Part shown: positions 1 through 11,309 of the stretch, piece after piece | How the letters are laid out: every line of letters starts with the position of its first letter | Numbering within the stretch: the first letter of the stretch is position 1 | NCBI GenBank assembly: GCA_026396515.1 | Contig: JAPLWQ010000002.1 | Coordinates: forward strand, 317,575-328,883 | Direction of reading: 5' to 3' | DNA from: Candidatus Magasanikiibacteriota bacterium | GTDB lineage: Bacteria; Patescibacteriota; Patescibacteriia; Magasanikbacterales; GWA2-37-8 | DNA length: 11,309 bases | Notes under the pieces: generated by a model | Databases searched by the model: none | Seen by the model: only the letters and a program-made list of their open reading frames with translations | Told to the model about the DNA's origin: nothing | Translations under genes and position numbers: made by a program

Positions 1-13
1 AATGCCATTTTTG

Positions 14-22
14 TGCTATACT
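14..22 (+). promoter_or_regulatory. Putative extended -10 element (TGcTATACT) upstream of the lipoprotein gene
   Basis: tgctatact at 14-22 matches the TGnTATAAT-type extended -10. It lies in the AT-rich leader about 100 nt upstream of the ATG at 123. No clear -35 was identified. Confidence 0.3.
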
Positions 23-122
23 ATTCAGTTAAGTTCATTGAAAAAGCACTTAGATTAGCGAAAAAAAAGAATAACGGCAAAAACCGGTGCGAATGCGGTA
101 AAACCCGCAAAAGGGAGAAAAA

Positions 123-1640
123 ATGAAGAAGATCATCGGGGTCTTGGCACTGTGTCTGCTCGGAACGATTGCGTGCTCCAATGGCGACATGGCGTCCGAC
201 GATACGGACGACACCGACACCATGGAGTGCGACGACGACACCGGCAGCGATGCGGACGCGGATAGCGACAGCGACTCCGACTCCGACGCGGACAGTGACG
301 GCGATGCGGATACCGGCAGCGAGACCGATACCGGCTCGGAAACGAGCACGGATTCGGACAGTGGCTCGGAGACCGATACGGATTCGGCGTCTGACACAGG
401 GTCGGACAGTGAAACCGGAACCGAAGCTGACGCGGGAACGGACACCGGCAGTGAGACCGACACAGGGTCGGAGACTGACACGGGTTCGGACACCGACAGC
501 GAAACCGACTTCACGCTCCCGTATACCGGCTGGTTCGCCGAGGGCGGGTCGGGCGCGCACGCGAGTGCCAGCCCGGTCTACATTCATACCGGGTTTTACG
601 ATAGTGGTACGATCGACCTCGGCCTTCACTTCTGGTATACCCCGATCGTGGACGTTGATGGCAACATCTACGTTGCTGTTGATACCGGTGCGACGAACGC
701 TAAGATCGTGTCGTATACGGAGAGTGGTGATTACCGGTGGGAGTTCGAATACCCGGCGTACTATGGTTGCCCGCGCGAGCCAGTGATGGACGACGCCGGT
801 CACCTGTACGTTTCGGGCGCTCTTACCAACACGGTGTACTCCGTGAACACGGCAACGGGCGAAGCGGTCTGGTCTTACCAGAGCGACGTTGTCATGATTG
901 TCGAAGAGATGGTTCCGGTAGCGAATGGCGGTGTCGTGATCCGCGATATGAGTAGCGTGGAAGCAATCAACGAGGACGGCGAACAGGCTTGGGCGATCGA
1001 TTCGCTCGGGATGTCCCCGCAGTTCATGACCACGGATGCTGATGGCACGCTGTATCTGTCAATCGGCAGCGGCACGCTTCTGCAAATCGTGAATGGCGAA
1101 ATCATTTGGTTGTTCGCAATGCAGGTTCAGACACGGCCCGCGCTGAAAGACGGCATACTGTATGTGGTGGACATGGTCGCGAGCGACCCCGACCTCAACT
1201 CGGCCACCTACGCGATTCACGCTATCGATATTAACGAAGAGTCCATCGCTTGGACTTCATCCGAGATGGTGATGGCCGCGAACAGCGCCAAGCCGAGCGG
1301 CGTGTCGGTGGCTAACAACCTGGTGTACTTCGGTGTCGAGAATAAAATCAAGATGCTGTCCCAGGCGACCGGCATCGAGGTCGGCGAATACGTCTTCGGC
1401 GAGGTGGATGGATACAGCTTTGCTCCGCCGGTCGTTGATCCGGACGGTGTGGTGGTTGCCGCAAGAGGCAACAAGCTGTACATGCGTTACCTTGGCTCGT
1501 GGGATATAGTTTTCACGCCGAGCGTGGACATCCCCGACAACACCACCACGACTGCTGTTCTACCGACGCCGATCGCTGTGAGGAAAAACGGCGGTTTGCT
1601 CGTCGGGAGCAAATCGGGCAGGCTGTACTTCTTCAACTAG
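123..1640 (+). CDS. Secreted/lipoprotein-type protein: signal peptide with a lipobox-like TIAC, acidic D/S/T/G/E low-complexity linker, C-terminal PQQ-like (BamB/YfgL-like) beta-propeller repeats
   Basis: 505-aa ORF with a GGGAG SD 7 nt upstream of the ATG. The N-terminus MKKIIGVLALCLLGTIAC is a signal peptide with a Cys. About 100 aa of DSDSD/GSETDT repeats follow. After that come repeated motifs (GNIYVAVDTGA..., GHLYVSGAL..VYSVNTATGEAVWSY, DGTLYLSIGSG, DGILYVVD, NLVYFGVENK...ATG.EV, GVVVAARGNKLY) typical of PQQ-enzyme-like beta-propeller blades. The GC-rich codon usage is uniform along the ORF. Confidence 0.75.
   Translation: MKKIIGVLALCLLGTIACSNGDMASDDTDDTDTMECDDDTGSDADADSDSDSDSDADSDGDADTGSETDTGSETSTDSDSGSETDTDSASDTGSDSETGTEADAGTDTGSETDTGSETDTGSDTDSETDFTLPYTGWFAEGGSGAHASASPVYIHTGFYDSGTIDLGLHFWYTPIVDVDGNIYVAVDTGATNAKIVSYTESGDYRWEFEYPAYYGCPREPVMDDAGHLYVSGALTNTVYSVNTATGEAVWSYQSDVVMIVEEMVPVANGGVVIRDMSSVEAINEDGEQAWAIDSLGMSPQFMTTDADGTLYLSIGSGTLLQIVNGEIIWLFAMQVQTRPALKDGILYVVDMVASDPDLNSATYAIHAIDINEESIAWTSSEMVMAANSAKPSGVSVANNLVYFGVENKIKMLSQATGIEVGEYVFGEVDGYSFAPPVVDPDGVVVAARGNKLYMRYLGSWDIVFTPSVDIPDNTTTTAVLPTPIAVRKNGGLLVGSKSGRLYFFN
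195..512 (+). repeat. Imperfect in-frame tandem repeats (about 18-nt units such as accggcagcgagaccgat) encoding a D/S/T/G/E-rich linker (GSETDT, DSDSDS units)
   Basis: Repeated accggc(a/t)cgga(g/a)ac(c/g)ga(t/c)a-type units and gacagcgactccgac runs are visible directly in 195-512. The translation is almost entirely D, S, T, G, E and A. Confidence 0.7.
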
Positions 1641-1673
1641 CCGCTCTTTAATCCACTGGAGTTCCTTCCTTTA

Positions 1674-1697
1674 GCCCTGACTTTCTACAGTCGGGGC
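1674..1697 (+). other. GC-rich hairpin (gccctgact-ttctac-agtcggggc, 9-bp stem with one G.U wobble) just downstream of the lipoprotein stop
   Basis: An inverted repeat is visible in the sequence. It is not followed by a T-tract, so it may be a structural element at the edge of the GC-rich block rather than the terminator. Confidence 0.35.
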
Positions 1698-1708
1698 ACA
1701 TCTAAAAG

Positions 1709-1732
1709 ACACCACTTTACGTGGTGTTTTTT
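1709..1732. terminator. Bidirectional Rho-independent terminator between convergent genes (acaccac-tttac-gtggtgt followed by tttttt)
   Basis: A perfect 7-bp stem at 1709-1715/1721-1727 with a 5-nt loop and a T6 run at 1727-1732. On the minus strand the same hairpin follows the stop of the MGMT-like gene (1731-1733) and is followed by cttttag. Confidence 0.65.
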
Positions 1733-2003
1733 AGTATGATTTTTTAATAATATTTTTTATCCCTTCGTTTTTAAGCTTTGTAATTTTTAATTTTATCCCA
1801 CGGTTGTAGTCGCCGATTTTTCCGTCCGAGCGGGCGACGCGGTGGCAGGGGATCTTCGGGTCATAATTTTTATTTATAACTTTCCCTACTGCCCGCGCCG
1901 CCCTGGGCCGGCCGGATTTTCGTGCTACTTCGCCATATGTTAAAACTTTTCCTTTGGAGATTTTAGCGACGACCGATTTAACTTTTTGGGTGAAAGTTAG
2001 CAT
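1731..2003 (-). CDS. MGMT-family protein (methylated-DNA-protein-cysteine methyltransferase DNA-binding domain, Ogt C-terminal/Atl/YbaZ-like), active-site PCHRV present
   Basis: The 90-aa product contains LTYGEVA...GRP.AARAVG...N...IPCHRV, the MGMT C-terminal domain signature including the Cys acceptor motif PCHR. Its start overlaps the upstream gene stop as TAATG, indicating translational coupling. Confidence 0.8.
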   Translation of the reverse strand: MLTFTQKVKSVVAKISKGKVLTYGEVARKSGRPRAARAVGKVINKNYDPKIPCHRVARSDGKIGDYNRGIKLKITKLKNEGIKNIIKKSY

Positions 2004-2512
2004 TAAGAGAGCATATTATTTATAAACTCAATCTTTTTTGCATAATAATTCCTCGGGGACGTGCCATCATTTTGTATTTTTAATGTTTCATATTCTTTGA
2101 GAGCGTTTGGGTCATTCCTCAGTATTTTCTCAAATTTTATTGACCGTTTCCAATCAGAATGATTTTTATTTATCAAAAATATTTCAATTTTTATGTCATC
2201 AATATATTTAACAAAGCGTACACGCCTCAACGGGTAGACGCTACCCGGTTGGCCCAGATATTTAATGAGTTTGTCGAGGTAAACATTAAAATTTCTATTG
2301 GAGATGGGGATGTAGAGGTCTATCTCTCCTTGTCCGGCAATACCGAGTGCGGTTGAACCGCGAAGCGATATTCTTGTTTTACCCAAGACATTAATCAGGT
2401 CCTTTTTTATCATCTTAAATATTGTTTTGGTTTTCGGATTATAAGGCAGGACACTGATTATATTAGTGTCGCTTAAATGATTTACCCATTCTTGTTGTTC
2501 GGGTGTCAACAT
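2003..2512 (-). CDS. GrpB/UPF0157-like nucleotidyltransferase-fold protein
   Basis: The 169-aa product has IISVLPYNPKTKTIFKMIKKDLINVLGKTRISLRGSTALGIAGQGEIDLYI, which resembles the GrpB pattern (I.V..Y.P.W...F..E...L...LG.....HIGSTAVPG...IDI). This is the minimal NTase hG[GS]-x10-D motif, but the second acidic residue is replaced (DLY instead of DID). It is AT-rich with no SD. Confidence 0.5.
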   Translation of the reverse strand: MLTPEQQEWVNHLSDTNIISVLPYNPKTKTIFKMIKKDLINVLGKTRISLRGSTALGIAGQGEIDLYIPISNRNFNVYLDKLIKYLGQPGSVYPLRRVRFVKYIDDIKIEIFLINKNHSDWKRSIKFEKILRNDPNALKEYETLKIQNDGTSPRNYYAKKIEFINNMLS

Positions 2513-2534
2513 GTCGGGTATTCTATCAAGAAAA

Positions 2535-2590
2535 TGAAAAAAATAAAAAAGCCGCCGGCGGGAAACGCGGGCGGCGAGGCGGGGAGCGAT
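2535..2590 (-). terminator. Putative intrinsic terminator of the minus-strand GC-rich operon: GC-rich dyad (gccgccggcgg palindrome and flanking GC-rich repeats) followed by a T-rich run on the minus strand
   Basis: On the minus strand the GC-rich dyad cccgccggcggc is immediately followed by ttttttattttttt (plus-strand A-run 2535-2550). It lies right after the TGA stop (2597-2599) of the MIF-like gene. The exact stem could not be resolved by eye. Confidence 0.35.
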
Positions 2591-2596
2591 TGTCTC

Positions 2597-2962
2597 TCAG
2601 GTAGATACTTCCTTACTGAACGTAGAGAAGCCGATATCGTCGCGACTGACCGGGTGAACGAAACACTCGATCAGTGCGGTCTCGGGGAAGAATGCGCGGA
2701 CGGTGGTAACCAGGGCAGCGGCGAGAGCGTCCCGAACATCCGGCGTGCGATCCGGCTTCTTGAGGAGACTGTCGACGTAGATGATGATCTCTTCGCCCAG
2801 GCCGGCGGACATCATGTCACTCGGGAAAAAGCAGGAGACCTGGTCTGCGACCAACTCCAGCTCTTTGACCGCGGCGGTCGCTGCGCGCAGGTCATCGCAG
2901 AGTGCCTTGAGTTTCTTCTGGTTGGTCTTTCTCGGAATTCCGTAAACGATGATGACTGGCAT
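2597..2962 (-). CDS. Tautomerase-superfamily protein, MIF/D-dopachrome-tautomerase-like (Pro1 retained)
   Basis: The 121-aa product begins MPVIIVYGIPRK, close to MIF MPMFIVNTNVPR. A central VSCFFPSDMMSAGLGEE aligns with MIF IAVHVVPDQLMAFGGSSEP, and the length is MIF-like. There is a GGAG about 7 nt upstream and a TGATG overlap with the upstream gene. The sequence is GC-rich. Confidence 0.5.
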   Translation of the reverse strand: MPVIIVYGIPRKTNQKKLKALCDDLRAATAAVKELELVADQVSCFFPSDMMSAGLGEEIIIYVDSLLKKPDRTPDVRDALAAALVTTVRAFFPETALIECFVHPVSRDDIGFSTFSKEVST

Positions 2963-3318
2963 CAGACTGCTCCCACGATAGGACCGAGGTCGGGGTCGAC
3001 GGCGATTGCACCTTTCGGGACCTTGTCGCCGGCGCGGTAGAGGGCCGGACCGCCGATGCTGAGGACGCGGCCGTCGAGTTCGTGTTCCAGCTCCTCGATG
3101 GTTTTCAGGACCCGCTGGCGGCTGGCCTCGTTGCCGAGGTGCAGCACGTTAGCCCTGCCGCCGCTGTAGTGCCAGTCGACCTTCGCCTTGGCCTTTTCGG
3201 CCACGCGTCGCACCCAACGCTCCACGGCGTTGGAGCTTCCGTCGACGACGCAGACGCCTTTTCCTTTCTTGAAGATCGCGGGGTTGCACGGGGATGGGGT
3301 CGGTCCATCTGTTGCCAT
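2962..3318 (-). CDS. Hypothetical protein (118 aa), first gene of the GC-rich two-gene operon
   Basis: Strong SD AGGAGGTG 5 nt upstream of the ATG at 3318. It is translationally coupled to the MIF-like gene through a TGATG overlap. The motif GKGVCVVDGSSNAVERW is present, but no family could be assigned confidently from sequence alone. Confidence 0.6.
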   Translation of the reverse strand: MATDGPTPSPCNPAIFKKGKGVCVVDGSSNAVERWVRRVAEKAKAKVDWHYSGGRANVLHLGNEASRQRVLKTIEELEHELDGRVLSIGGPALYRAGDKVPKGAIAVDPDLGPIVGAV

Positions 3319-3358
3319 TGAAACACCTCCTGTGGGGTTTGTTCTAAGAACTAAACAA

Positions 3359-3387
3359 AAAATAGCACCAAAGTGCTATTTTGTCAA
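3359..3387 (-). promoter_or_regulatory. Sigma70-type promoter for the minus-strand GC-rich operon: -35 TTGACA (3382-3387), 17-nt spacer, extended -10 TGcTATTTT (3359-3367). A perfect 8-bp inverted repeat AATAGCAC-N4-GTGCTATT (3361-3380) lies in the spacer/-10 and is a putative operator.
   Basis: Read on the minus strand the region is ttgacaaaatagcactttggtgctatttt. The hexamers and spacing are directly visible. The palindrome overlapping the -10 is the classic geometry of a repressor operator. Confidence 0.5.
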
Positions 3388-3418
3388 CCCGGTAGAATGC
3401 ATAGGGGCCTCTACCGGG
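3388..3418. other. GC-rich hairpin (cccggtaga-N13-tctaccggg, 9-bp perfect stem) abutting the -35 at the boundary between GC-rich block 2 and AT-rich DNA
   Basis: A perfect inverted repeat is visible in the sequence. It has no adjacent T-tract on either strand. Its function is unknown; it could be a regulatory site or a recombination boundary. Confidence 0.35.
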
Positions 3419-3560
3419 CAGGCGCTCCCCATTAAGCACGTGTTTAGAACTTTAGATTGGGATAAGATAGCCATTGATTTGCGTATTTTTCAAGAAGATT
3501 GCCATTTTGCTTTAAAATGATAGGATGTAAATAAGGGTAAAACAGTCTTGATTGCCCTGA

Positions 3561-3575
3561 CTAAAAATGTAATGA
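3561..3575 (+). promoter_or_regulatory. Conserved 15-mer CTAAAAATGTAATGA (copy 1) upstream of the 408-aa hypothetical gene. It contains a start-stop-stop triplet ATG-TAA-TGA.
   Basis: An identical 15-mer recurs at 5274-5288 directly upstream of the 376-aa hypothetical gene. Confidence 0.4.
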
Positions 3576-3585
3576 CCAATTGAAT

Positions 3586-4824
3586 ATGAACGAAGAAGAA
3601 GATTTAGACAATCAAAATCTTAACTATTTCAATAACGATTACCTGTTTTTGATAATTCTGATTTTGTTAGAGAAATATCATACAGGCGAACGGGATGGCT
3701 ACGGCGTAAGTAGCGCTTTTACGCTGAATGAGTTTATAAAAGGCAACTTATCCAAATGTGAAGAAATTACAGGCGAAATTGAAGATACAAACGATTACAG
3801 TAGCCCAAACGAATACGTTTTAAGCCATATAATCAGAATAGGCGATGACTTAAATATAATAAAACTCCGACAAATAGGCGCTTTCAAAATGAGCGTAATG
3901 TTGGAACAGGTTGTTGAATACGCCATAAATAACGATAAAACATTCCCACCTGAAGCAGGATATTACTGCGCTGTAATTGACGAGATAATGAAATTGCAGA
4001 TTATCGAAAAAGAGCGAAATGAAAATCTTTTTAAGGCAAAGGAATACACCTTTGAAAAAACCAGAGAACCGATATTTTTTAACGATAACTACAGTAAGCA
4101 TATTGCCCTATTGCTTGATATAGTTCCTGAATATATATACTTACGAGCAACCTTTATTGACGAAGAAGTAAACACCATTGAAAAAGAAATAAAAACTTTT
4201 TTAGATGACTTTAGCAATGACCTACTTAAAGACTACCAGCCAGATTATGCCCTAACCAGTCGCTTATATTTTACCAAACAAATCGAGAATTTCTACGCCT
4301 ACCTAAACACGCTCCCACTTGTTGGAAATACCGTGAATATACCTTTTACCGTATTAGGCAATAAAGATTTTGAAGTAGTTAAAATCTTAAAATTTCTTGA
4401 GCTTAATAAGAGAATTAGAATAAACAAATGGAACGATGAAGCTTTTTGGAAAGTCGATTTTATAGATACCCCGATTACAATTGAAAGCCTTGTTAGCAAT
4501 ACAAAATCGCCCAGGCAGTCAAAGCCAAGAGTAAGCACAAAGTTCAAAGACGGCACGTTATATTTTGAAGATAAGCAATTTAACTTTAATAGAAAGCAAA
4601 TACAAAAAGACCTGCTTAATACCCTATTCAAAAAGCCTAAGTATAATTGGAGCAATGATGAGATATGGGAAGACTGGGGCGAGGAAGATTTTAAAAATAA
4701 GACATTAAAATTTTATACGGCCAGCGATGAGATAAATAAAATGATAGCCTTGGAAACTGGCGTTAGAGATTTTTTAATAAAAGGCACAAAACAAGTCCAA
4801 ATTAACCCTAAATATGTAAGTTAA
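3586..4824 (+). CDS. Hypothetical protein (about 408 aa) with no recognisable domain. The ORF track starts at a TTG at 3580; the first ATG is at 3586.
   Basis: Long uninterrupted AT-rich ORF with host-like codon usage and no SD, like all AT-rich genes here. Its N-terminal acidic stretch is followed by a hydrophobic LFLIILILLEKY segment. No ATPase, nuclease or MTase motifs were seen. Confidence 0.6.
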   Translation: MNEEEDLDNQNLNYFNNDYLFLIILILLEKYHTGERDGYGVSSAFTLNEFIKGNLSKCEEITGEIEDTNDYSSPNEYVLSHIIRIGDDLNIIKLRQIGAFKMSVMLEQVVEYAINNDKTFPPEAGYYCAVIDEIMKLQIIEKERNENLFKAKEYTFEKTREPIFFNDNYSKHIALLLDIVPEYIYLRATFIDEEVNTIEKEIKTFLDDFSNDLLKDYQPDYALTSRLYFTKQIENFYAYLNTLPLVGNTVNIPFTVLGNKDFEVVKILKFLELNKRIRINKWNDEAFWKVDFIDTPITIESLVSNTKSPRQSKPRVSTKFKDGTLYFEDKQFNFNRKQIQKDLLNTLFKKPKYNWSNDEIWEDWGEEDFKNKTLKFYTASDEINKMIALETGVRDFLIKGTKQVQINPKYVS

Positions 4825-4858
4825 AGTTAGGTAAAGTTAGATAAACACTTATTCTGTA

Positions 4859-4895
4859 AAATAACCTTATAACAAACTAAGGTTATTTTTTATTT
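4859..4895 (+). terminator. Rho-independent terminator (aaataacctt - ataacaaact - aaggttattt followed by tttatttg)
   Basis: A perfect 10-bp inverted repeat at 4859-4868/4879-4888 with a 10-nt loop and a downstream T-run, located 35 nt after the stop at 4824. Confidence 0.6.
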
Positions 4896-5003
4896 GCAAT
4901 CAAAACGAACAACTGACTAATGAGCAACTCGAAGCCAAGCATAATCTGACTGGCTTTTTTAAGTTGCTCTTGGAAATTGATATGCGAAATAACCCACATC
5001 TTT

Positions 5004-5264
5004 ATGAAGATAACGGAAGTCCAGATAATACCGATTAAGGCCAATAACGGCTTAATAGCCTTTGGGAGCGTATTGTTTGACGATTGCCTATTCTTAGGCT
5101 CAATCGGCATACACAAAAAGCTCGATGGGAGCGGTTATCGAATAACCTACCCTACAAAGAAAATCGGCGAAAAAGATATAAATATCTTTCATCCAATAAA
5201 TAAAGAAGTAAGTAAGCTCATTGAAGATGAGATTATAAAAAAAGTGAACAGGCTGTTTGCCTAA
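5004..5264 (+). CDS. spoVG: SpoVG-family nucleic-acid-binding protein
   Basis: MKITEVQIIPIKANNGLIAFGSVLFDDCLFLGSIGIHKKLDGSGYRITYPTKKIGEKDINIFHPINKEVSKLIEDEIIKKV aligns along its length with the SpoVG consensus (..V.DVRL..V..EG.MKAIASITLDD.FVVHDIRVI.G.NGLFVAMPSKR...GEFRDIAHPIN.E.R..I..AV). The ORF track begins at a TTG at 4977, but the in-frame ATG at 5004 gives the canonical SpoVG N-terminus. Confidence 0.7.
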   Translation: MKITEVQIIPIKANNGLIAFGSVLFDDCLFLGSIGIHKKLDGSGYRITYPTKKIGEKDINIFHPINKEVSKLIEDEIIKKVNRLFA

Positions 5265-5273
5265 AAATCACTT

Positions 5274-5288
5274 TCTAAAAATGTAATG
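5274..5288 (+). promoter_or_regulatory. Conserved 15-mer CTAAAAATGTAATGA (copy 2), 2 nt upstream of the ATG of the 376-aa gene. It is preceded by a partial copy, ctaaaaatcac, at 5261.
   Basis: Exact repeat of 3561-3575. Confidence 0.4.
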
Positions 5289-5290
5289 AA

Positions 5291-6421
5291 ATGTTGGATA
5301 CTGTAATACTACAAGTTGATTATAATAAATTTTATATTCAGAAATATGAAAATTTTGGCGCAAGCAAAGAACAGATTTTAAGTTCAAAAAGTCCTTTCAA
5401 AAAATGGATAAATAACCCAAGCAAGAAAGATGAAATTTATAAGCCAAGACTAACACTAATAAAACGAGGTATTCGTTTTGTTCTAAAGATAGAATTTTCA
5501 GCTCCCAAGTTAATTTTTGGGAATAACATTGATGAGCTTGATGATGGCGATTTTGATTTAGTCATTAAAACACTAAGAGAAAGACTGCAATCAATGGGAG
5601 TATTGATATTTAGTGCTAACCTCGAAAATTCAGAAGTTATATCATTTCATCCATCGAAAAACATACCACTCAGCAAAGGATATACTGCTAATCTCGCAAT
5701 TAAAGAACTTAATAAAATAGACTGTAGCAAGCGCTTTGATTTTGACGAAAAGAACTACAGAAATAACGGCGAAGTCCTGCAATTTTACACTCGCTCCCAT
5801 TCTTTCGTTATTTACGATAAAATAAATGACTTAGTAAAACCACAAAAAAGGGCTACTGATAAAGACCAGACTAAACAGCAATTATCTATATTTGACTACA
5901 TAAAAACAAACGAACAGGCACTCCAGATATTAAGATTGGAGATTAGGCTAAGTTTAAAGCAAAAGCTCAACAATGTAATGGACTTTTTGGAGCAAAAAAC
6001 AAACCCTACGTTTAAAGATATTTTTAGCAAAAAACTATGTAAAAAAATCGTCAATTCTTACTGGGATAATTTCTTTGGCAATAACCTTTTCATCTTTAAT
6101 ACTAATAGTAGTCCACAATATATCTTACAGCTTATTTTTATGAAATATCCAAAAACTAAAATTCTACAGGCAATAAAAGCGGTTGGGCTTTATATGTTAT
6201 GCAAAGACAATGACGGCATTAAGGGGTTTAGACAAATCATTGATAGCCACAGGCGCAATCGAGCTGATTGGCAAACAGTAAAAGAAAATTTAAAACAGTT
6301 TGAAGACGAGATTTTTACAAGCTCAACCTGGGGATTTATAAAAGATATACGCCGAGAATTAAGGGATTTTAAGCCTTACCGACTAACCAAGACTGAAAAC
6401 TTGATATGTAAAGAAAAGTAA
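5291..6421 (+). CDS. Hypothetical protein (376 aa), tentatively resembling a Rep_trans-type rolling-circle replication initiator or relaxase
   Basis: A long AT-rich ORF. The segment HSFVIYDK followed about 45 aa later by LRLEIRL is reminiscent of the YdK ... R.E.r region I recall from Rep_trans (pT181 Rep, NicK/Orf20-like) proteins. This recollection is unverified, and the N-terminal R.D.A.D-type motif was not found. The gene sits with an Xis-like and a recombinase gene, which would suit a mobile element. Confidence 0.55.
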   Translation: MLDTVILQVDYNKFYIQKYENFGASKEQILSSKSPFKKWINNPSKKDEIYKPRLTLIKRGIRFVLKIEFSAPKLIFGNNIDELDDGDFDLVIKTLRERLQSMGVLIFSANLENSEVISFHPSKNIPLSKGYTANLAIKELNKIDCSKRFDFDEKNYRNNGEVLQFYTRSHSFVIYDKINDLVKPQKRATDKDQTKQQLSIFDYIKTNEQALQILRLEIRLSLKQKLNNVMDFLEQKTNPTFKDIFSKKLCKKIVNSYWDNFFGNNLFIFNTNSSPQYILQLIFMKYPKTKILQAIKAVGLYMLCKDNDGIKGFRQIIDSHRRNRADWQTVKENLKQFEDEIFTSSTWGFIKDIRRELRDFKPYRLTKTENLICKEK

Positions 6422-6435
6422 AGTATAATATCAAT

Positions 6436-6528
6436 ATGAAAATCAAAAATGAGGATAACCTAAAATTCCACATTGAAAGCAATGATTACTTCGGCACTTT
6501 GGCTACAGTGTTAAGCCTACAAGAATAA
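6436..6528 (+). CDS. Possible small ORF (30 aa, MKIKNEDNLKFHIESNDYFGTLATVLSLQE) in the intergenic region upstream of the HTH gene
   Basis: An ATG-initiated frame read directly from the sequence. It has no RBS and no homology evidence, and could be non-coding. Confidence 0.15.
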   Translation: MKIKNEDNLKFHIESNDYFGTLATVLSLQE

Positions 6529-6629
6529 AACTTATCAGAGTATAAGAAATTTAAAGTATCTGAAATACTAAAAAGCAAAATTGACGAGCTTATGTATCTA
6601 CAAAAAAACTATAAGATAATCAAAAAATT

Positions 6630-6812
6630 ATGAGCGAAGATAAAAAACAATTTTACACCGCCCAAGAATTAGCCGAACTACTTGGTTTTAATATAATGAC
6701 TATTTACCGATATATTAAGTCTGGTAAGTTGAAAGCCTATAAATTTGGTAAAGATTTTCGGATTGATAATGCCGAATTTCAATCTTTCTTAAAAAAAGTA
6801 AGAACAAAATAA
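6630..6812 (+). CDS. Excisionase-family helix-turn-helix DNA-binding protein (HTH_17/Xis/MerR-like), 60 aa
   Basis: FYTAQELAELLGFNIMTIYRYIKSGKLKAYKFGKDFRIDNAEFQSFL matches the excisionase-family HTH pattern (lt..EaAelLgvs..tvyrli..G.lpa.k.G...ri...dl..fl). Its stop lies 2 nt before the mod ATG. Confidence 0.7.
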   Translation: MSEDKKQFYTAQELAELLGFNIMTIYRYIKSGKLKAYKFGKDFRIDNAEFQSFLKKVRTK

Positions 6813-6814
6813 CT

Positions 6815-8590
6815 ATGCAAAACACTAAACGCAAACCAGAGGAAAATGAAAAAGAACAATTAAAAAATGAAATTTCTCGTTTGAAAAAGAAAATGGAAAA
6901 ATACGAAGCGATAGAATTAAAGCAAAACCGCTTTGGTTTAGTTTGGTTAGATGTTCCAGAAGCCTTTGAAGATGATGTTGAAAACAAATTACCAATTTTA
7001 GAAAAGGTATCAAAACTATCAATCAATAGCAAAGATAAAGAACCAACACACTTACTAATCGAGGGTGATAATTATCACGTTTTAACTTGCTTAAACTACA
7101 CTCACAAAGGAAAAGTTGATGTTATTTATATTGACCCACCATACAACACGGGAACTGATGGATTTAAATATAAAGATAAAAGAATTTTAGCGGAATATCC
7201 AGATGGAACAGAAGTCCCAGCAGACCACCCATTACGACACAGCTATTGGCTTTCATTTATGAAAAAACGTCTTGAATTATCGAAAGACCTACTCACCGAG
7301 CAAGGCTCTATTTTTGTGAGCATTGATGAAAATGAAATAGCGCAATTAAAACTATTGATGGATGAGATTTTTCTACCAGAAAATTTTATAGCCAATATAA
7401 CAGTTCAAAGCAACCCAAGAGGAAAACAACAAATGAAAATAGCCACCACACACGAATATCTACTGGCATATGCCAAGAATATAAATAAGGTTCAAATAAA
7501 CAGCGAAGAATTATCTAATGCCCAAGTAAAAGATTACTCTAAATTAGACGGAAGTGGCCTAAACTACAGAGAAATGGGATTAAGAAAAAGAGGTGCGGCT
7601 TCAAGGAGAGTTGATGTTCCAAATTTATATTACCCAATTTACGTTAATCCGAAAACTGGCGAAGTCGCATTGAAAAAAAATACTATTTTTACAAAAGAGG
7701 CTTTACCAGTTTTAAGTAATGGCGAGGATGGTCGTTGGAGATGGGGTAAGAAAAAATTTGAGCTATTTCACGACAGACTATTTGGTCGCCTTGTAAACAA
7801 AGAAAGATGGGATATTTTTGAAAGAGATTATCTCGTAAAAGATGGCGAACAAAAAGGAATGAAAGCTAAATCTATTTGGGATGACAAGGAATTGAATTAT
7901 GAAAATGCAAAAAAAGAATTAAAAAATTTCTTTGACGGTAAAACAATCTTTGATTACCCAAAAACTGTATATCTAATAAAAAAGATTTGCAGGATTGCTT
8001 CAAATAAAAATTCTATTGTATTAGATTTTTTTGCTGGCTCAGGAACTACAGGCCAAGCTGTGTTAGAGTTGAATAAAGAAGATAAAGGTAATAGACAAGT
8101 ATTGTTAGCAACCAACAATGAAAATCGAATTATGACTGAAGTTTGTTATCCAAGAATAAAAAAAGTGATTAAAGGATATTACAATCACAAAAATGGATTA
8201 GGCAATTCAATTGAATACTTTAAAACTGCTTTTGTTGGTAAAAACAATATATTAAAAGCTACTGACTCAGATAAAATTGAATTAGCCCATAATGCTGGAG
8301 CGATGCTATCAATAGCAGAAAATACGCTAAATCTAATTGAGTCAAATAACTTCTGGCAAATCTTTGAAAATAACGAACAGTATCTTGCAATATATTTTAG
8401 AGAAGAATTTAATAAATTTGATGATTTCATAAAAAAAGTCAAACAGTTTAAAAGACCTACGATAGTTTATATTTTTAGTTGGGAGAAAGAATTTGATTTT
8501 AATGATTTTGAAGATGATAGAAATATAAAAGTTAAAACCATCCCTCAGCCAATCTTAGAAATTTATAAACAAATTTATAATCTTATTTAA
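6815..8590 (+). CDS. mod: Type III restriction-modification Mod subunit (N6/N4 amino-methyltransferase, beta class)
   Basis: Motif IV DVIYIDPPY at aa 102-110, preceded by LIEGDNYHVL. Motif I FFAGSGTTGQA is near aa 400 after a long target-recognition region. The DPPY-then-FxGxG order and the 591-aa size are typical of type III Mod. It is immediately followed by a helicase-nuclease gene. Confidence 0.8.
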   Translation: MQNTKRKPEENEKEQLKNEISRLKKKMEKYEAIELKQNRFGLVWLDVPEAFEDDVENKLPILEKVSKLSINSKDKEPTHLLIEGDNYHVLTCLNYTHKGKVDVIYIDPPYNTGTDGFKYKDKRILAEYPDGTEVPADHPLRHSYWLSFMKKRLELSKDLLTEQGSIFVSIDENEIAQLKLLMDEIFLPENFIANITVQSNPRGKQQMKIATTHEYLLAYAKNINKVQINSEELSNAQVKDYSKLDGSGLNYREMGLRKRGAASRRVDVPNLYYPIYVNPKTGEVALKKNTIFTKEALPVLSNGEDGRWRWGKKKFELFHDRLFGRLVNKERWDIFERDYLVKDGEQKGMKAKSIWDDKELNYENAKKELKNFFDGKTIFDYPKTVYLIKKICRIASNKNSIVLDFFAGSGTTGQAVLELNKEDKGNRQVLLATNNENRIMTEVCYPRIKKVIKGYYNHKNGLGNSIEYFKTAFVGKNNILKATDSDKIELAHNAGAMLSIAENTLNLIESNNFWQIFENNEQYLAIYFREEFNKFDDFIKKVKQFKRPTIVYIFSWEKEFDFNDFEDDRNIKVKTIPQPILEIYKQIYNLI

Positions 8591-8591
8591 T

Positions 8592-10967
8592 ATGCCGACA
8601 TTTAATCTTCTTCCTTTTCAAAAAACTGCAGTAAATGACTTAAATGAGGCTCTTCTGCATCTTTGGAAAAAACAAGAAAGACAATTACCACTGGTTTTTA
8701 AATCCCCTACTGGTAGCGGAAAAACCCTAACAATTGCTCATTTCGTAAAAAACTTAAATCATCTTCCACAATGGAATATCGATAAAGCTTTTATATGGAT
8801 TACTTTTAGTGATGATTTGGCGATGCAAAGTAAAGATAAATTCAATGAGTATTTTGAAAACAATTTAGAAAATGCTCTTTTGTCCGTAAGCGATATTAAC
8901 AGGGGTAAATTATATGAAAACGATATTTTATTTTTAAACTGGCAAAAAGTTGTGCAAGATAGCGCCGCTTCAAGAAAATTAAAAATACGCACACCTAAAG
9001 ATGAAAGGTTTAAAAAAGAAAAAGGTAGTTATTTTGAAGATGTAATAGCTGAAACAAAAAAAGATAACCGAGAAATTATCTTACTCGTTGACGAAGCACA
9101 CACTCATAAAGCCACAGAATTAGCACAAGAGGTAATTAACTTAATTGACCCTAAAATTATAGTGCATATTACTGCGACCCCAGATGACAAAGATATAGCC
9201 AAAGCCGCTACACTAAGCAGTTTTGTCCAAGTAGAAAGAGAAAAGGTTGTTGATGAGGGGTTAATTAAAGAAAAAATTTTAGTTCAAACAGAGGAAGATT
9301 TGTTAAAACATAAAAATAAAGACTTGGATGAAGTTTTACTGACTTTAGGTATGGATAAAAGACAGGAACTTGCAAAAGAACTAAAATCAATTGGAAAAGA
9401 TATAAATCCACTACTACTTATTCAGCTCCCAAATGACGACAAAGAACTTGTTGCTAAAGGAGATAAGACAAAAGAAGAAGTTGTTAGCCAATTTTTAGCC
9501 ACTAAGGGCGTAAAGGGTTCTCAAATAGCAAAATGGTTTGATGGAAAAAAAGAGAATTTAGATTATATAGCTGATAATGATAGCAAGGTTGATTATATGC
9601 TTTTCAAGCAAGCCGCTGGAACTGGTTGGGATTGTCCACGTGCAAGTGTTTTAGTAATGTTTAGAGAAATAAAAAAAGAAACTTTTTACACGCAAACAGT
9701 CGGAAGAATTTTAAGAATGCCTGAACCGCAGGTTAAAGAGGATTATAAAAATACCCCGAATTTAAGAACTGGGTATTTATACACCAACTACAAACGCAAT
9801 CAAGTCGAATTACCAGATTTAAATAAAAACGAAATTCCAAGTCAACACGCTTACATAAAGAAAGAAATAAAAAATGTTAAATTACAATCGGCCTATATTT
9901 CACGTATTGACTACGGCGATATTCCTGCCTCTTCAAAATTTCAAGATAGCTTTACAAAATCAATGAACTCCTATTTTGGCATAACTAAAACTGGCTCAAC
10001 GGCTGAGGAAAAATTAAAAAAAGCAGGAGTAGATTTAAATCACAAATTAACAAATAGCATTATCGCAAATGCTAAATTTGAAGATTTAGAACAAATGGCA
10101 TACGAATTTAAAAAAAGAGGTGTTGATATTGAGCTTGAAATGTCTATAAATGATGTTGAAAAAACATTTAATTACTTCTGCCTTACACTATTAAAAGAGC
10201 AAACCGAAGAACAAGCTAAATATACTAACGTCGCTCGTGCTTGGGGCGTATTTAAATCAGCAATAAGAGTTTGGTTTGGCTCTGTTTTGGGTAAGGATAG
10301 CGACTACTATTATCGAGTATTTGTTAAAGATATACAAAAGGGCGCAAGTAGTAAATTCAGACCAGCTATAACAAAAGCATTGATTGAATTTAAACCAATG
10401 GCCAAGGAAATTCTAAAAGAAAAGAAAGAAAAAGAAGAAGAAAAAGAAGCTCCAATTTTTACTATTTTAGAGCAATACGATTTTACCTCTGATTATGAAG
10501 AAGTTCCTCAAAGACTTTGCGCTCTGGATAAGTGTTTTATACTGAAAGATTACAGAGGAAAAGAAAATGAACTTAACTTTATCAAATATCTTGAAGCTAA
10601 AAAAGACAAGATTGATTGGTGGTTTAAAAATGGCAATCAAGGAAAAGACTATTTTGCCATAAAGTATTTCAATAGTATTGATAATAAAGAAGCGCTATTT
10701 TATCCAGATTTTATAATAAAATTTAAGAGTGGCAAGATTGGTATCTTTGACCCCAAAAAAGACCAAACAGCCGAAGATGTTATCACGGCCAATAAAACTA
10801 AGGCTTTAGCTATCAAGCTAAAAGAGTTGGGCAAAAACTATGTAGGCGGTATAGTTGTATTTGAAAACGGAATTTGGAATTACAACGGCTCGGAAAAATA
10901 TAATTACCAAAAAGGAAAAATTAGCCAAGATAAAAATTGGCAACCAATGGAAAATTTATTTAAGTAA
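8592..10967 (+). CDS. res: Type III restriction enzyme Res subunit (SF2 helicase with C-terminal PD-(D/E)xK-like nuclease motif)
   Basis: Walker A SPTGSGKT (aa 38-45), DEAH box LLVDEAHTH (aa 165-172), ITATP, and motif VI QTVGRILR. The C-terminal segment ...FYPDFIIKFKSGKIGIFDPKK fits PD-x16-DxK. Its start is 1 nt after the mod stop. Confidence 0.75.
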   Translation: MPTFNLLPFQKTAVNDLNEALLHLWKKQERQLPLVFKSPTGSGKTLTIAHFVKNLNHLPQWNIDKAFIWITFSDDLAMQSKDKFNEYFENNLENALLSVSDINRGKLYENDILFLNWQKVVQDSAASRKLKIRTPKDERFKKEKGSYFEDVIAETKKDNREIILLVDEAHTHKATELAQEVINLIDPKIIVHITATPDDKDIAKAATLSSFVQVEREKVVDEGLIKEKILVQTEEDLLKHKNKDLDEVLLTLGMDKRQELAKELKSIGKDINPLLLIQLPNDDKELVAKGDKTKEEVVSQFLATKGVKGSQIAKWFDGKKENLDYIADNDSKVDYMLFKQAAGTGWDCPRASVLVMFREIKKETFYTQTVGRILRMPEPQVKEDYKNTPNLRTGYLYTNYKRNQVELPDLNKNEIPSQHAYIKKEIKNVKLQSAYISRIDYGDIPASSKFQDSFTKSMNSYFGITKTGSTAEEKLKKAGVDLNHKLTNSIIANAKFEDLEQMAYEFKKRGVDIELEMSINDVEKTFNYFCLTLLKEQTEEQAKYTNVARAWGVFKSAIRVWFGSVLGKDSDYYYRVFVKDIQKGASSKFRPAITKALIEFKPMAKEILKEKKEKEEEKEAPIFTILEQYDFTSDYEEVPQRLCALDKCFILKDYRGKENELNFIKYLEAKKDKIDWWFKNGNQGKDYFAIKYFNSIDNKEALFYPDFIIKFKSGKIGIFDPKKDQTAEDVITANKTKALAIKLKELGKNYVGGIVVFENGIWNYNGSEKYNYQKGKISQDKNWQPMENLFK

Positions 10968-10971
10968 AAAT

Positions 10972-11309
10972 ATGAAAGCGATAATCCTTGCGAGAGTATC
11001 AACCGAAGAACAAAAAGATGCGGGTAATTCTTTGCCAGCTCAGGTTGTTCGTATGGAAACATATTGCAAGCAAAGAAATTTTCAGGTTGCAAAAACGCTT
11101 AGCTTTGACGAAAGCGCTTATAAGACAAAACGAGATGACTTTGATAAAATCATTGATTACATAAAACAATCAAAAGAAAAAATTATCGTTTGCTTTGATA
11201 AGGTAGATAGATTTTCACGAAACGTTTTTGATAAGCGAGTTGCTTATTTATACGAGATGGCAATGAGCGATAAAATTGAATTACATTTTGCCTCAGACAA
11301 CCTTGTTAT
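10972..11309 (+). CDS. Serine recombinase (resolvase/invertase or large serine integrase), N-terminal catalytic domain only, truncated by the window end
   Basis: MKAIILARVSTEEQKDAGNSLPAQ... matches the serine recombinase catalytic signature (AIYARVST.eQ...g.Sl.aQ) including the nucleophilic Ser. The ORF is open to the end of the window. Confidence 0.75.
   Translation, partial: MKAIILARVSTEEQKDAGNSLPAQVVRMETYCKQRNFQVAKTLSFDESAYKTKRDDFDKIIDYIKQSKEKIIVCFDKVDRFSRNVFDKRVAYLYEMAMSDKIELHFASDNLV

Follow-up and report, generated by a model that had tools for sequence, protein, structure and literature searches.

Organisation of the locus

The 11,309-nucleotide stretch of DNA analysed here (the window), taken from contig JAPLWQ010000002.1 of Candidatus Magasanikiibacteriota bacterium, carries on its forward strand a large open reading frame (ORF), ORF1, a gene of the SpoVG family and a second large open reading frame, ORF3. 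These are followed by a helix-turn-helix (HTH) gene of the HTH_17 family, the Mod and Res genes of a type III restriction-modification (R-M) system and the beginning of a gene for a large serine recombinase (Table 1). We consider it likely that the proteins of the first three genes constitute a DNA-nicking and DNA-binding replication or mobilisation backbone of an integrative element, in which two of the genes are under SpoVG-linked control.

A preliminary description of this DNA had recognised the trio as a module on a mobile element adjoining R-M genes, which agrees with our results, and had offered two roles for it: a new defence or abortive-infection module, or the replication/mobilisation module of the element. 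The evidence favours the second. The Xis-like HTH protein, complete type III R-M system and serine recombinase that it listed downstream are all present, according to the HTH_17 and PADLOC matches and the translation of the recombinase gene, and so is the 376-amino acid ORF3. The predicted large ORF1 is also found, at 412 instead of 408 amino acids. Gene coordinates follow the numbering of the whole window and refer to the + strand.

An integrative element at the 3' end of a tRNA gene

Positions 3562-11309 of the window are 98.6% identical to a second contig (L003), and the left flanks of the two are entirely different. Similarity to L003 and to two further related elements (L004 and L046) resumes at window positions 3424-3531, and GC content falls from ~60% to ~32% near position 3400, at the left end of the element. 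In L003 the complete recombinase has 503 amino acids with Resolvase, Recombinase and Zn_ribbon_recom domains, and rpoD and dnaG come after it. The 3' end of the recombinase gene overlaps a minus-strand tRNA-Asn gene (L003 11925-11997), whose own 3' end, at the right end of the L003 element, reads GCTCCC. The same six bases open the element at window position 3424 (L003 2514). L091, an independent contig obtained in a different sequencing run, matches window positions 1-3428 at 100% identity and stops within the GCTCCC core, which suggests that the sample contained alternative continuations, with the element present or absent. The differing left flanks, the core from a tRNA end and the point at which L091 stops together indicate that host DNA extends to about position 3423 and that the element lies beyond it. 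The window from position 3424 is therefore the left ~7.9 kb of a ~9.5-kb Patescibacteria element integrated at the 3' end of a tRNA gene. The element has its own recombinase, an HTH_17 protein, a predicted DNA-processing nickase and a defined left end, which are the features of an integrative mobilisable or replicative element. That a copy 98.6% identical occurs in L003 in a different, AT-rich context implies recent movement between backgrounds, or a mis-join.

Of the 25 loci scanned, 17 have a recombinase ORF whose 3' end runs into the 3' part of an opposite-strand tRNA gene; this gene is for Asn-GTT in 12 loci, for His-GTG in 4 and for Gln in 1. Because of this overlap, the last ~12 recombinase codons would differ between the integrated and the excised state. 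Integration at tRNA 3' ends is classically tied to tyrosine integrases, and the arrangement is hence notable for a serine recombinase.

The host flank is a mosaic in GC content (~57% at positions 1-1600, ~38% at 1700-2500 and ~60% at 2600-3400, next to 32% in the element). It encodes a 505-amino acid protein with a long Asp/Ser/Thr-rich repeat, an MGMT-type DNA-binding protein, GrpB and two uncharacterised ORFs.

Backbone and cargo

Scanning one genome per species with a degenerate pattern yielded 120 confirmed ORF3 relatives, of which 80 were kept. They reside mostly in metagenome bins of the Patescibacteria, or Candidate Phyla Radiation (CPR), with few bins labelled otherwise. For a census of gene neighbourhoods, the six-frame ORFs of 83 sources, all of which contain ORF3, were searched with the window proteins. 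A large serine recombinase is encoded downstream of ORF3 on the same strand in 67 of these sources, the remainder being mostly truncated contigs. An HTH_17 gene lies just downstream of ORF3, also on the same strand, in 57, and often abuts the recombinase gene where there is no cargo. By comparison, Mod was found in 23 sources and Res in 15. ORF3 and the recombinase gene are between 0 and 7.7 kb apart, and the slot that separates them is free of cargo in about 20 of 60 loci. The 92 ORFs found there are nearly all R-M genes (types I, II, IIG/MmeI, III and IV GmrSD), plus Fic.

Upstream of ORF3, SpoVG occupies the directly adjoining position in 43 of the 83 sources, and the C-terminal domain of ORF1 is encoded in 28 by phmmer and 37 by an iterated hidden Markov model (HMM). 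Loci without SpoVG (L013, L015-L017, L021, L022, L025, L027-L049 and others) have a conserved ORF of ~55 codons in its place, which is unrelated to SpoVG, ends in ...NLxGFFxLLLxVDKRxNPxxY and overlaps the ORF3 start codon. Since ORF3 and its partners track the recombinase and not the R-M genes, the trio, or ORF3 with equivalent partners, is the backbone of the element, and the type III R-M system is interchangeable cargo. The HTH_17 protein is part of this backbone, probably as a directionality factor or regulator. The elements are small, widespread in the ultra-small Patescibacteria and apparently undescribed; no such Patescibacteria element was found in the open-access literature searched.

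In two loci (L005 11144-13264 and L010 11161-13077) HTH_17 is fused to the N terminus of a Mod methyltransferase, which matches PADLOC MTase_II models with an N-terminal HTH, so the HTH_17 domain may also serve in R-M control in some elements. Between ORF3 and the HTH_17 gene lies a further small ORF (window 6437-6529). It encodes 65 amino acids in L001-L003 and is absent from L004; the window copy is shortened to 30 codons by a CAA-to-TAA change at about position 6527.

Table 1. Genes and other features of the element within the window
Feature	Position	Strand	Details
Left end of element	3424-3531	+	Core GCTCCC (3424-3429) and conserved 108-bp segment
Left-end promoter-like site	3499-3526	+	TTGCCA-16-TAGGAT; from promoter scan
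Motif, copy 1	3561-3575	+	CTAAAAATGTAATGA; core GTAATGA; ends 10 nt 5' of ORF1 ATG
ORF1	3586-4824	+	412 aa from ATG; homologues open with MNEEEDL
Terminator-like AT-rich hairpin and T-run 3' of ORF1	4858-4889	+	Putative function
SpoVG-family gene	5004-5264	+	86 aa; PF04026
Motif, copy 2	5275-5289	+	CTAAAAATGTAATGA; ends 1 nt 5' of ORF3 ATG
ORF3	5291-6421	+	376 aa
HTH_17/excisionase-like gene	6630-6812	+	PF12728, E 4.5e-12; TIGR01764, E 1.9e-13
Type III Mod	6815-8590	+	PADLOC MTase_III, E 4e-82
Type III Res	8592-10967	+	PADLOC REase_III, E 1e-16
Large serine recombinase, N terminus	10972-11309	+	First 112 codons; translation opens MKAIILARVSTEEQ; gene continues past the window

ORF3 resembles tyrosine nickases in its predicted fold

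ORF3 has no match in Pfam (E<=0.1), NCBIfam, PHROG or PADLOC. Its family is nevertheless large, with at least 1200 clusters at 50% identity in a library of 1.84 billion proteins. The best 150 matches of a profile search of this library all belong to the close ORF3 family, with no bridge to Rep_trans among those listed. The AlphaFold model (predicted local distance difference test, pLDDT, 86.5; predicted template modelling score, pTM, 0.87) consists of a predicted catalytic domain at about residues 1-230 and a helical C-terminal domain. In Foldseek comparisons with BFVD the model aligns over its whole length, with E values from 1.4e-8 to 3e-4, to proteins that include Inoviridae G2P, and it agrees with the crescent-shaped, TBP-like catalytic fold of Rep_trans.

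An alignment of 29 family members that share 27-56% identity has 27 invariant positions: M1, D3, T4, N42, Y50, P52, T55, S70, P72, K73, N78, N79, E82, L95, H120, K123, N124, D150, N158, Y175, D176, K177, D180, Q197, R215, E217 and R219. The catalytic residues of Rep_trans were defined by experiment for RepDE by Carr et al. 2016 (PMC4797284), and motif III of the MOBT relaxases, Y-x-K-x-x-E, was defined for RelSt3 (PMC6499999). Reading by motif order against the sequences of pT181 RepC and M13 gpII, we map the RepDE residues to ORF3 as D46/D3, D142/H120, D146/N124, Y191/Y175, K193/K177, E196/D180, R212/R215 and E214/E217. The N-terminal MLD3T of ORF3 corresponds to ...SFD46AM in RepC and MID in gpII, and IEFSAPKL to RIEFNPNKL and IKASPAKV, respectively. 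The other pairs, with RepC and likewise in matching order, are SFH120PSKN124 with RLD142LAFD146, RNNG with GRNG, VIY175DK177..D180 with RIY191NK193..E196, and LR215LE217IRL with WR212VE214IEL. As in the crystal structures, no two of the ORF3 motifs share a beta-strand in the prediction (D3 on residues 2-10, H120 on 115-126, Y175 on 170-176, and R215 and E217 on 213-220).

We therefore file ORF3, on its predicted fold and motif pattern, as a very divergent new family in the Rep_trans/gene-II superfamily of tyrosine nickases, outside PF02486. It would accordingly be expected to nick DNA, as a rolling-circle initiator or as a relaxase. The preliminary description had reported no nuclease motif in the trio; this holds for sequence searches and is overturned for ORF3 by structure prediction.

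The SpoVG-like protein and ORF1

The middle protein matches PF04026 over profile positions 1-79 of 82 (E 8.2e-11; 42.3 bits against a cut-off of 29.6), so that the SpoVG homolog of the preliminary description is confirmed above the gathering score. The NCBIfam SpoVG equivalog model gives 36 bits against a cut-off of 108. A score above the Pfam cut-off and below the equivalog cut-off indicates a member of the SpoVG family that is not the housekeeping orthologue. By these profile scores the protein is a true SpoVG-family member, an element-borne paralogue. SpoVG proteins bind mRNA 5' leaders and single-stranded DNA (ssDNA) as well as specific DNA, which is TAATT[T/A] for SpoVG of Staphylococcus aureus, with an alpha-helix that sets the specificity (PMC3688583; PMC11086051). 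By analogy, the SpoVG-like protein is predicted to be a small nucleic-acid-binding partner of the other two.

ORF1 has no Pfam, PHROG, NCBIfam or PADLOC match. Sequence libraries are thus blank for both large ORFs, as the preliminary description had noted. The AlphaFold model of ORF1 (pLDDT 85) has a probable C-terminal OmpR/PhoB-type winged helix at about residues 316-412. The C-terminal ~90 amino acids are the one part common to different architectures, and the N-terminal part is variable. From the model, ORF1 appears to be a multi-winged-helix protein, and may act as a sequence-specific DNA-binding accessory or regulator with a swappable N-terminal part. The left-end segment of the element contains two 12-nucleotide direct repeats, AAGATAGCCATT (3464-3475) and AAGATTGCCATT (3495-3506), 31 nucleotides apart, the second of which overlaps the -35 element of the left-end promoter-like site. 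OmpR-type activators typically have their sites laid out in this way, which makes the repeats a candidate ORF1 target.

Between the left-end segment and ORF1, L003 has an extra 130-amino acid gene (L003 2609-3001) preceded by a motif-like AAAATTGTAATAAAT; the window counterpart of this region is 30 nucleotides long (3532-3561). Downstream of ORF1, the terminator-like hairpin is formed by an inverted repeat, AAAATAACCTTA and TAAGGTTATTTT, that is 100% complementary, has an 8-nucleotide loop and is followed by TTATTT.

A motif shared by ORF1 and ORF3

The same 15-mer, CTAAAAATGTAATGA, precedes ORF1 and ORF3. The preliminary description located the first copy and its 10-nucleotide distance from the ATG exactly; the second copy, which it had given as 5274-5288 and 2 nucleotides from the ATG, lies one position further downstream. 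In the window alone such a repeat is unremarkable, as a repeated 15-mer turns up in 31% of the sequences simulated for the AT-rich element part with a first-order Markov model. A second exact repeated 15-mer, GATAAAATTGAATTA, found at 8270-8284 and 11269-11283, encodes DKIEL in Mod and in the recombinase. It is clearly a coding coincidence of the chance type, and a useful control for the first.

The comparison of 75 non-redundant loci gives a different picture for the first 15-mer. The core GTAATGA occurs within 30 nucleotides upstream of the ORF3 start on the + strand in 28 loci and on the - strand in 0, and 1-2 kb upstream of ORF3 on the + strand in 28 loci and on the - strand in 3. Upstream of the first gene the core is conserved in about 25 divergent loci. 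In most loci with the upstream copy, it stands 1-8 nucleotides from the start codon of that gene, and the motif-bearing loci include elements whose ORF3 is about 30% identical to that of the window. The flanking A-run varies (AAAAAT, AAAGAT or AAGAA), and we summarise the motif as AAAWGTAATGA (13-15 nucleotides). The two copies vary jointly in GC-rich loci: both read GTAGCGA in L069 and L071, and both read GTGATGA in L080. Neither variant is expected as often as once per strand in these loci. Conservation across loci at two fixed positions on one strand, together with the co-variation of the copies, refutes an AT-rich coincidence, whose probability we regard as negligible despite the simulations and the coding repeat. 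The preliminary description's proposal of common control of the two genes is therefore supported. As judged from its conservation, the motif is probably a control site shared by ORF1 and ORF3.

The ORF3-proximal GTAATGA is present in 22 of 31 loci with SpoVG and in 0 of 31 without it (Fisher p 1e-9, phylogeny ignored), and the upstream copy in 19 of 31 and 3 of 31, respectively (p 4e-5, phylogeny likewise ignored). The ORF3-proximal copy of distant loci belongs to the SpoVG coding sequence, where it falls within the final codons (K-[ED]-V-M). In the window clade SpoVG ends earlier and the motif is non-coding, copy 2 of the window being located in the 26-nucleotide spacer between SpoVG and ORF3; the position of the motif relative to ORF3 is kept either way. 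The motif might act as a SpoVG-dependent control site for ORF1 and ORF3, on leader RNA or on DNA, a proposal that we make tentatively and rate at somewhat below even chances. In this capacity its sequence, AAAAAUGUAAUGA, is a candidate target of the SpoVG-like protein.

Several other explanations of the motif were tried and rejected. The ORF3-proximal copy is not a coding relic of SpoVG, as the C-terminal helix of SpoVG is complete before the stop codon in the window clade. Nor is the motif a Shine-Dalgarno site, as AGGAG stands between motif and start codon in L069. The start-stop ORF, ATG-TAA-TGA, that the preliminary description read in the 15-mer does not survive comparison: the T of the "ATG" is an A in L005, L007, L011, L023, L051 and others (AAGTAATGA), the loci with GTAGCGA have no TAA, and L080 has GTGATGA. 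Its reading of TGTAAT as resembling a -10 element fails for a sigma-70 -10 box, since there is a G at the critical second position and the promoter scan places its sites elsewhere, at 3499-3526 and 6401-6429. The site at 3499-3526 would place copy 1 in the ORF1 leader, where it is predicted to be unpaired. RNA folding of the two motif contexts shows no difference from shuffled sequences (z -0.3 and -1.4), so that we propose no structured RNA here, and an Rfam scan of the whole window gave no match. The site at 6401-6429 (TTGATA-17-TATAAT, 11/12) is the best promoter-like site of the region; it straddles the ORF3 stop codon and points toward the HTH_17, R-M and recombinase genes.

Proposed mechanism and alternative interpretations

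In the mechanism that we propose, the serine recombinase would excise the element, with the HTH_17 protein as the likely directionality factor. ORF3 would then nick one strand of the excised circle at a putative origin and stay linked to it through Tyr175; Asp3, His120 and Glu217 would hold the metal. The nick could prime rolling-circle copying, for maintenance or amplification, for single-strand transfer, or for both. ORF1 would bind DNA via its conserved winged helix, with the 12-nucleotide direct repeats at 3464 and 3495, or the 15-mer, as candidate sites. The SpoVG paralogue, as the most likely reader of the motif, may feed back on ORF1 and ORF3 through it, either on the mRNA leader or on DNA. 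The gene V protein of phage f1, which represses translation of gene II, provides an analogy for such an action of the SpoVG-like protein.

A number of observations weigh against this interpretation. The middle metal-ligand position is an invariant His120 in ORF3 and an Asp in Rep_trans, R140 and R189 of Rep_trans have no conserved counterpart in ORF3, and the mapping of residues was made by eye from motifs, not by superposition. Pfam searches at E<=10 with 29 diverse ORF3 members returned neither Rep_trans nor Phage_CRI, and a profile of 64 ORF3 homologues had 0 matches at E<=10 among PDB sequences. Alignment of the latter profile by hhalign with single M13 gpII or pT181 RepC sequences gave meaningless short matches only, and an HMM of the ORF3 family (29 members) scores RepC and gpII no better than 1000 shuffles of each. 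As no sequence method detects kinship with Rep_trans, the assignment of ORF3 rests on the fold and the hand-made motif mapping. No origin, nick site, circular form or ssDNA evidence was found, and none of the contigs examined has the terminal overlaps that mark circular contigs. The N-terminal 300 residues of ORF1 have no function assigned to them. SpoVG-bearing loci fall into related groups, so that phylogeny confounds the association of SpoVG with the motif, and conservation of the ORF3-proximal copy in distant loci could be partly at the level of the protein.

Among other interpretations, the closest to ours is that ORF3 is mainly a conjugative relaxase of the MOBT kind and that the element is an integrative mobilisable element (IME). 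Its nicked strand would be delivered to transfer machinery that the element does not itself encode, for example the FATA-type type IV secretion system (T4SS) on Patescibacteria chromosomes. This is compatible with the backbone role, as NicK of ICEBs1 does both. The predicted MOBT fold and motif III of ORF3 speak for it, as does integration of an element with its own recombinase and excisionase-like gene, for which streptococcal IMEs with Rep_trans-type relaxases offer a parallel (PMC7563843). The family is also large and has been missed by Pfam, NCBIfam, PHROGs and PADLOC. However, ORF3 does not have the N-terminal HTH that defines the MOBT architecture of integrative conjugative elements (ICEs), its catalytic Asp being residue 3. 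The cargo census has no T4SS family in its list of the 25 commonest Pfam families, and the viral proteins closest in structure include an initiator of phage replication and not a relaxase. We judge a chiefly conjugative role possible, if unlikely. Less probable still, and quite doubtful in our estimate, is that the motif is the nick site or origin of ORF3, that is, a double-strand origin (dso) or origin of transfer (oriT), instead of an expression control site. It stands directly upstream of the nickase gene and is strand-specific, and its core T-AATGA resembles T/AATAG, which we take to mark the nick position, in the origins of f1 (TCTTTAATAGTGG; M13 at 5776) and pT181 (CTACTCTAATAGCCGG). The dso of most rolling-circle replication (RCR) plasmids often lies upstream of rep, and the position can be compared with that of the ICESt3 oriT, in the orfK/orfJ intergenic region upstream of the relaxase gene (PMC6499999). 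Yet ORF3 is present in every locus and the ORF3-proximal motif only together with SpoVG, which argues against a nick site; the motif is confined mainly to SpoVG-bearing loci, and loci without SpoVG have no GTAATGA enrichment anywhere near ORF3. Two direct copies of an origin in rolling-circle plasmids are expected to give premature termination or deletion. Despite that expectation, both copies, 1.7 kb apart, are kept across divergent lineages, and both stand at a fixed short distance from start codons. No pT181-like flanking inverted repeat was found.

The whole-length Foldseek matches to Inoviridae replication proteins, the small size of the element and the predicted small nucleic-acid-binding protein encoded beside the initiator would also fit a degenerate or satellite filamentous, inovirus-like prophage, with ORF3 as gene II and the SpoVG-like protein as a gene-V-like ssDNA-binding protein. 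The slot argues otherwise, as R-M, Fic and related families make up its 25 commonest Pfam families and phage assembly is not represented in them, and so do the absence of any PHROG match and the distribution of the family (2 matches in 2.9 million IMG/VR viral contigs against 120 in species-representative genomes). A prophage origin thus seems improbable. Where three genes, two of them for large proteins without sequence-family assignment, adjoin a type III R-M system on a mobile element, one might suspect a new system of anti-phage defence or abortive infection that acts together with the R-M genes. We regard it as highly improbable here. ORF3 and its partners accompany the recombinase and not the R-M genes, about 20 of 60 elements being cargo-free and others carrying unrelated R-M types, and ORF3 has the predicted fold and active-site pattern of a replication nickase. 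PADLOC matched the Mod, Res and HTH_17 proteins alone, with none of its models matching ORF1, SpoVG or ORF3. The replication/mobilisation backbone remains the interpretation that we favour.

Significance

Mobile elements of Patescibacteria are poorly known. ORF3 adds a new family to a known superfamily of nickases, and the integrative elements that carry it are a new family as well. The ORF3 family, large and so far unannotated, gains a predicted fold and a likely chemistry, and a compact element family is defined that has clear ends and a single cargo slot, nearly always filled with R-M genes. The SpoVG paralogue obtains its first mobile-element context, plus a candidate target sequence. More generally, an "unknown gene next to R-M" need not mean defence.

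A survey of Patescibacteria T4SS (2025) reported relaxases in only 103 genomes and none near most T4SS clusters. One might speculate that the ORF3 family is the "very different relaxase" found missing in that survey from the widespread monoderm-type T4SS of Patescibacteria, and that 4-12-kb elements at tRNA genes are the main vehicles that carry R-M systems between these bacteria, by single-strand transfer. The SpoVG paralogue would then be gene-V-like. It would bind the GTAATGA site in the leaders of both the nickase gene and the regulator gene, and might also bind the displaced strand, and so time the switch between the integrated state and the replicating or transferring state. This combined scheme is, taken as a whole, unlikely.

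Comparison with known systems

ORF3 shares with the Rep_trans initiators (pT181 RepC/RepD and RepSTK1; PF02486; 4CWC and 4CIJ) a nucleophile Tyr within Y-x-K-x-x-acid, located on a beta-strand, then R-x-E on the strand that follows, as well as an Asp on the first. In contrast to them, it is undetectable by sequence profiles, has His120 in place of D142 and does not conserve R140 and R189. Its catalytic domain begins at residue 1, its C-terminal helical domain is different, and it is encoded by an integrated element and not a plasmid.

The gene II proteins of filamentous phages (Ff gpII and CTXphi RstA; Phage_CRI) have an N terminus similar to that of ORF3 (M-x-D...), and further motifs follow in the same order (IKASPAKV in gpII and IEFSAPKL in ORF3, VAYLKH and VIYDK, VRFEARI and LRLEIRL). 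As in gene II systems, a gene for a predicted small nucleic-acid-binding protein, here SpoVG-like, adjoins ORF3. Unlike them, ORF3 has no profile match, no phage morphogenesis family is among the 25 commonest slot families, integration is by a large serine recombinase, and the family is near-absent from viral contig collections.

The MOBT relaxases (NicK of ICEBs1, RelSt3 of ICESt3 and Orf20 of Tn916) and the Rep_trans-type relaxases of streptococcal IMEs have in common with ORF3 a nickase of the predicted Rep_trans fold on an integrated element, the element's own recombinase and excision functions, and motif III as Y-x-K-x-x-E/D. They differ in that ORF3 has no N-terminal HTH, its element has neither coupling protein nor T4SS, its host phylum is Patescibacteria, and its partners are SpoVG and an OmpR-type winged-helix protein. 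By its description, the Rep-Arvir family of archaeal viruses and plasmids (PMC13107129, 2026) is a precedent for a large Rep_trans-related family with a conserved Tyr that is recognisable only by structure. Rep-Arvir differs from ORF3 in combining DUF7845 with a MarR-like winged helix-turn-helix (wHTH) in one chain, and in its archaeal hosts.

SpoVG of Bacillus, Staphylococcus, Listeria and Borrelia belongs to the same Pfam family as the window paralogue, which scores far below the housekeeping equivalog cut-off and, unlike these proteins, is encoded inside a mobile element, directly upstream of a predicted nickase gene. Compared with OmpR/PhoB-type effector domains (Trans_reg_C; SARP/AfsR, ToxR and CadC), ORF1 has neither a PF00486 match nor a receiver domain, and its winged helix is joined to variable N-terminal modules. 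None of the systems compared joins such a nickase with a SpoVG paralogue, an OmpR-type partner, a serine recombinase and an R-M slot.

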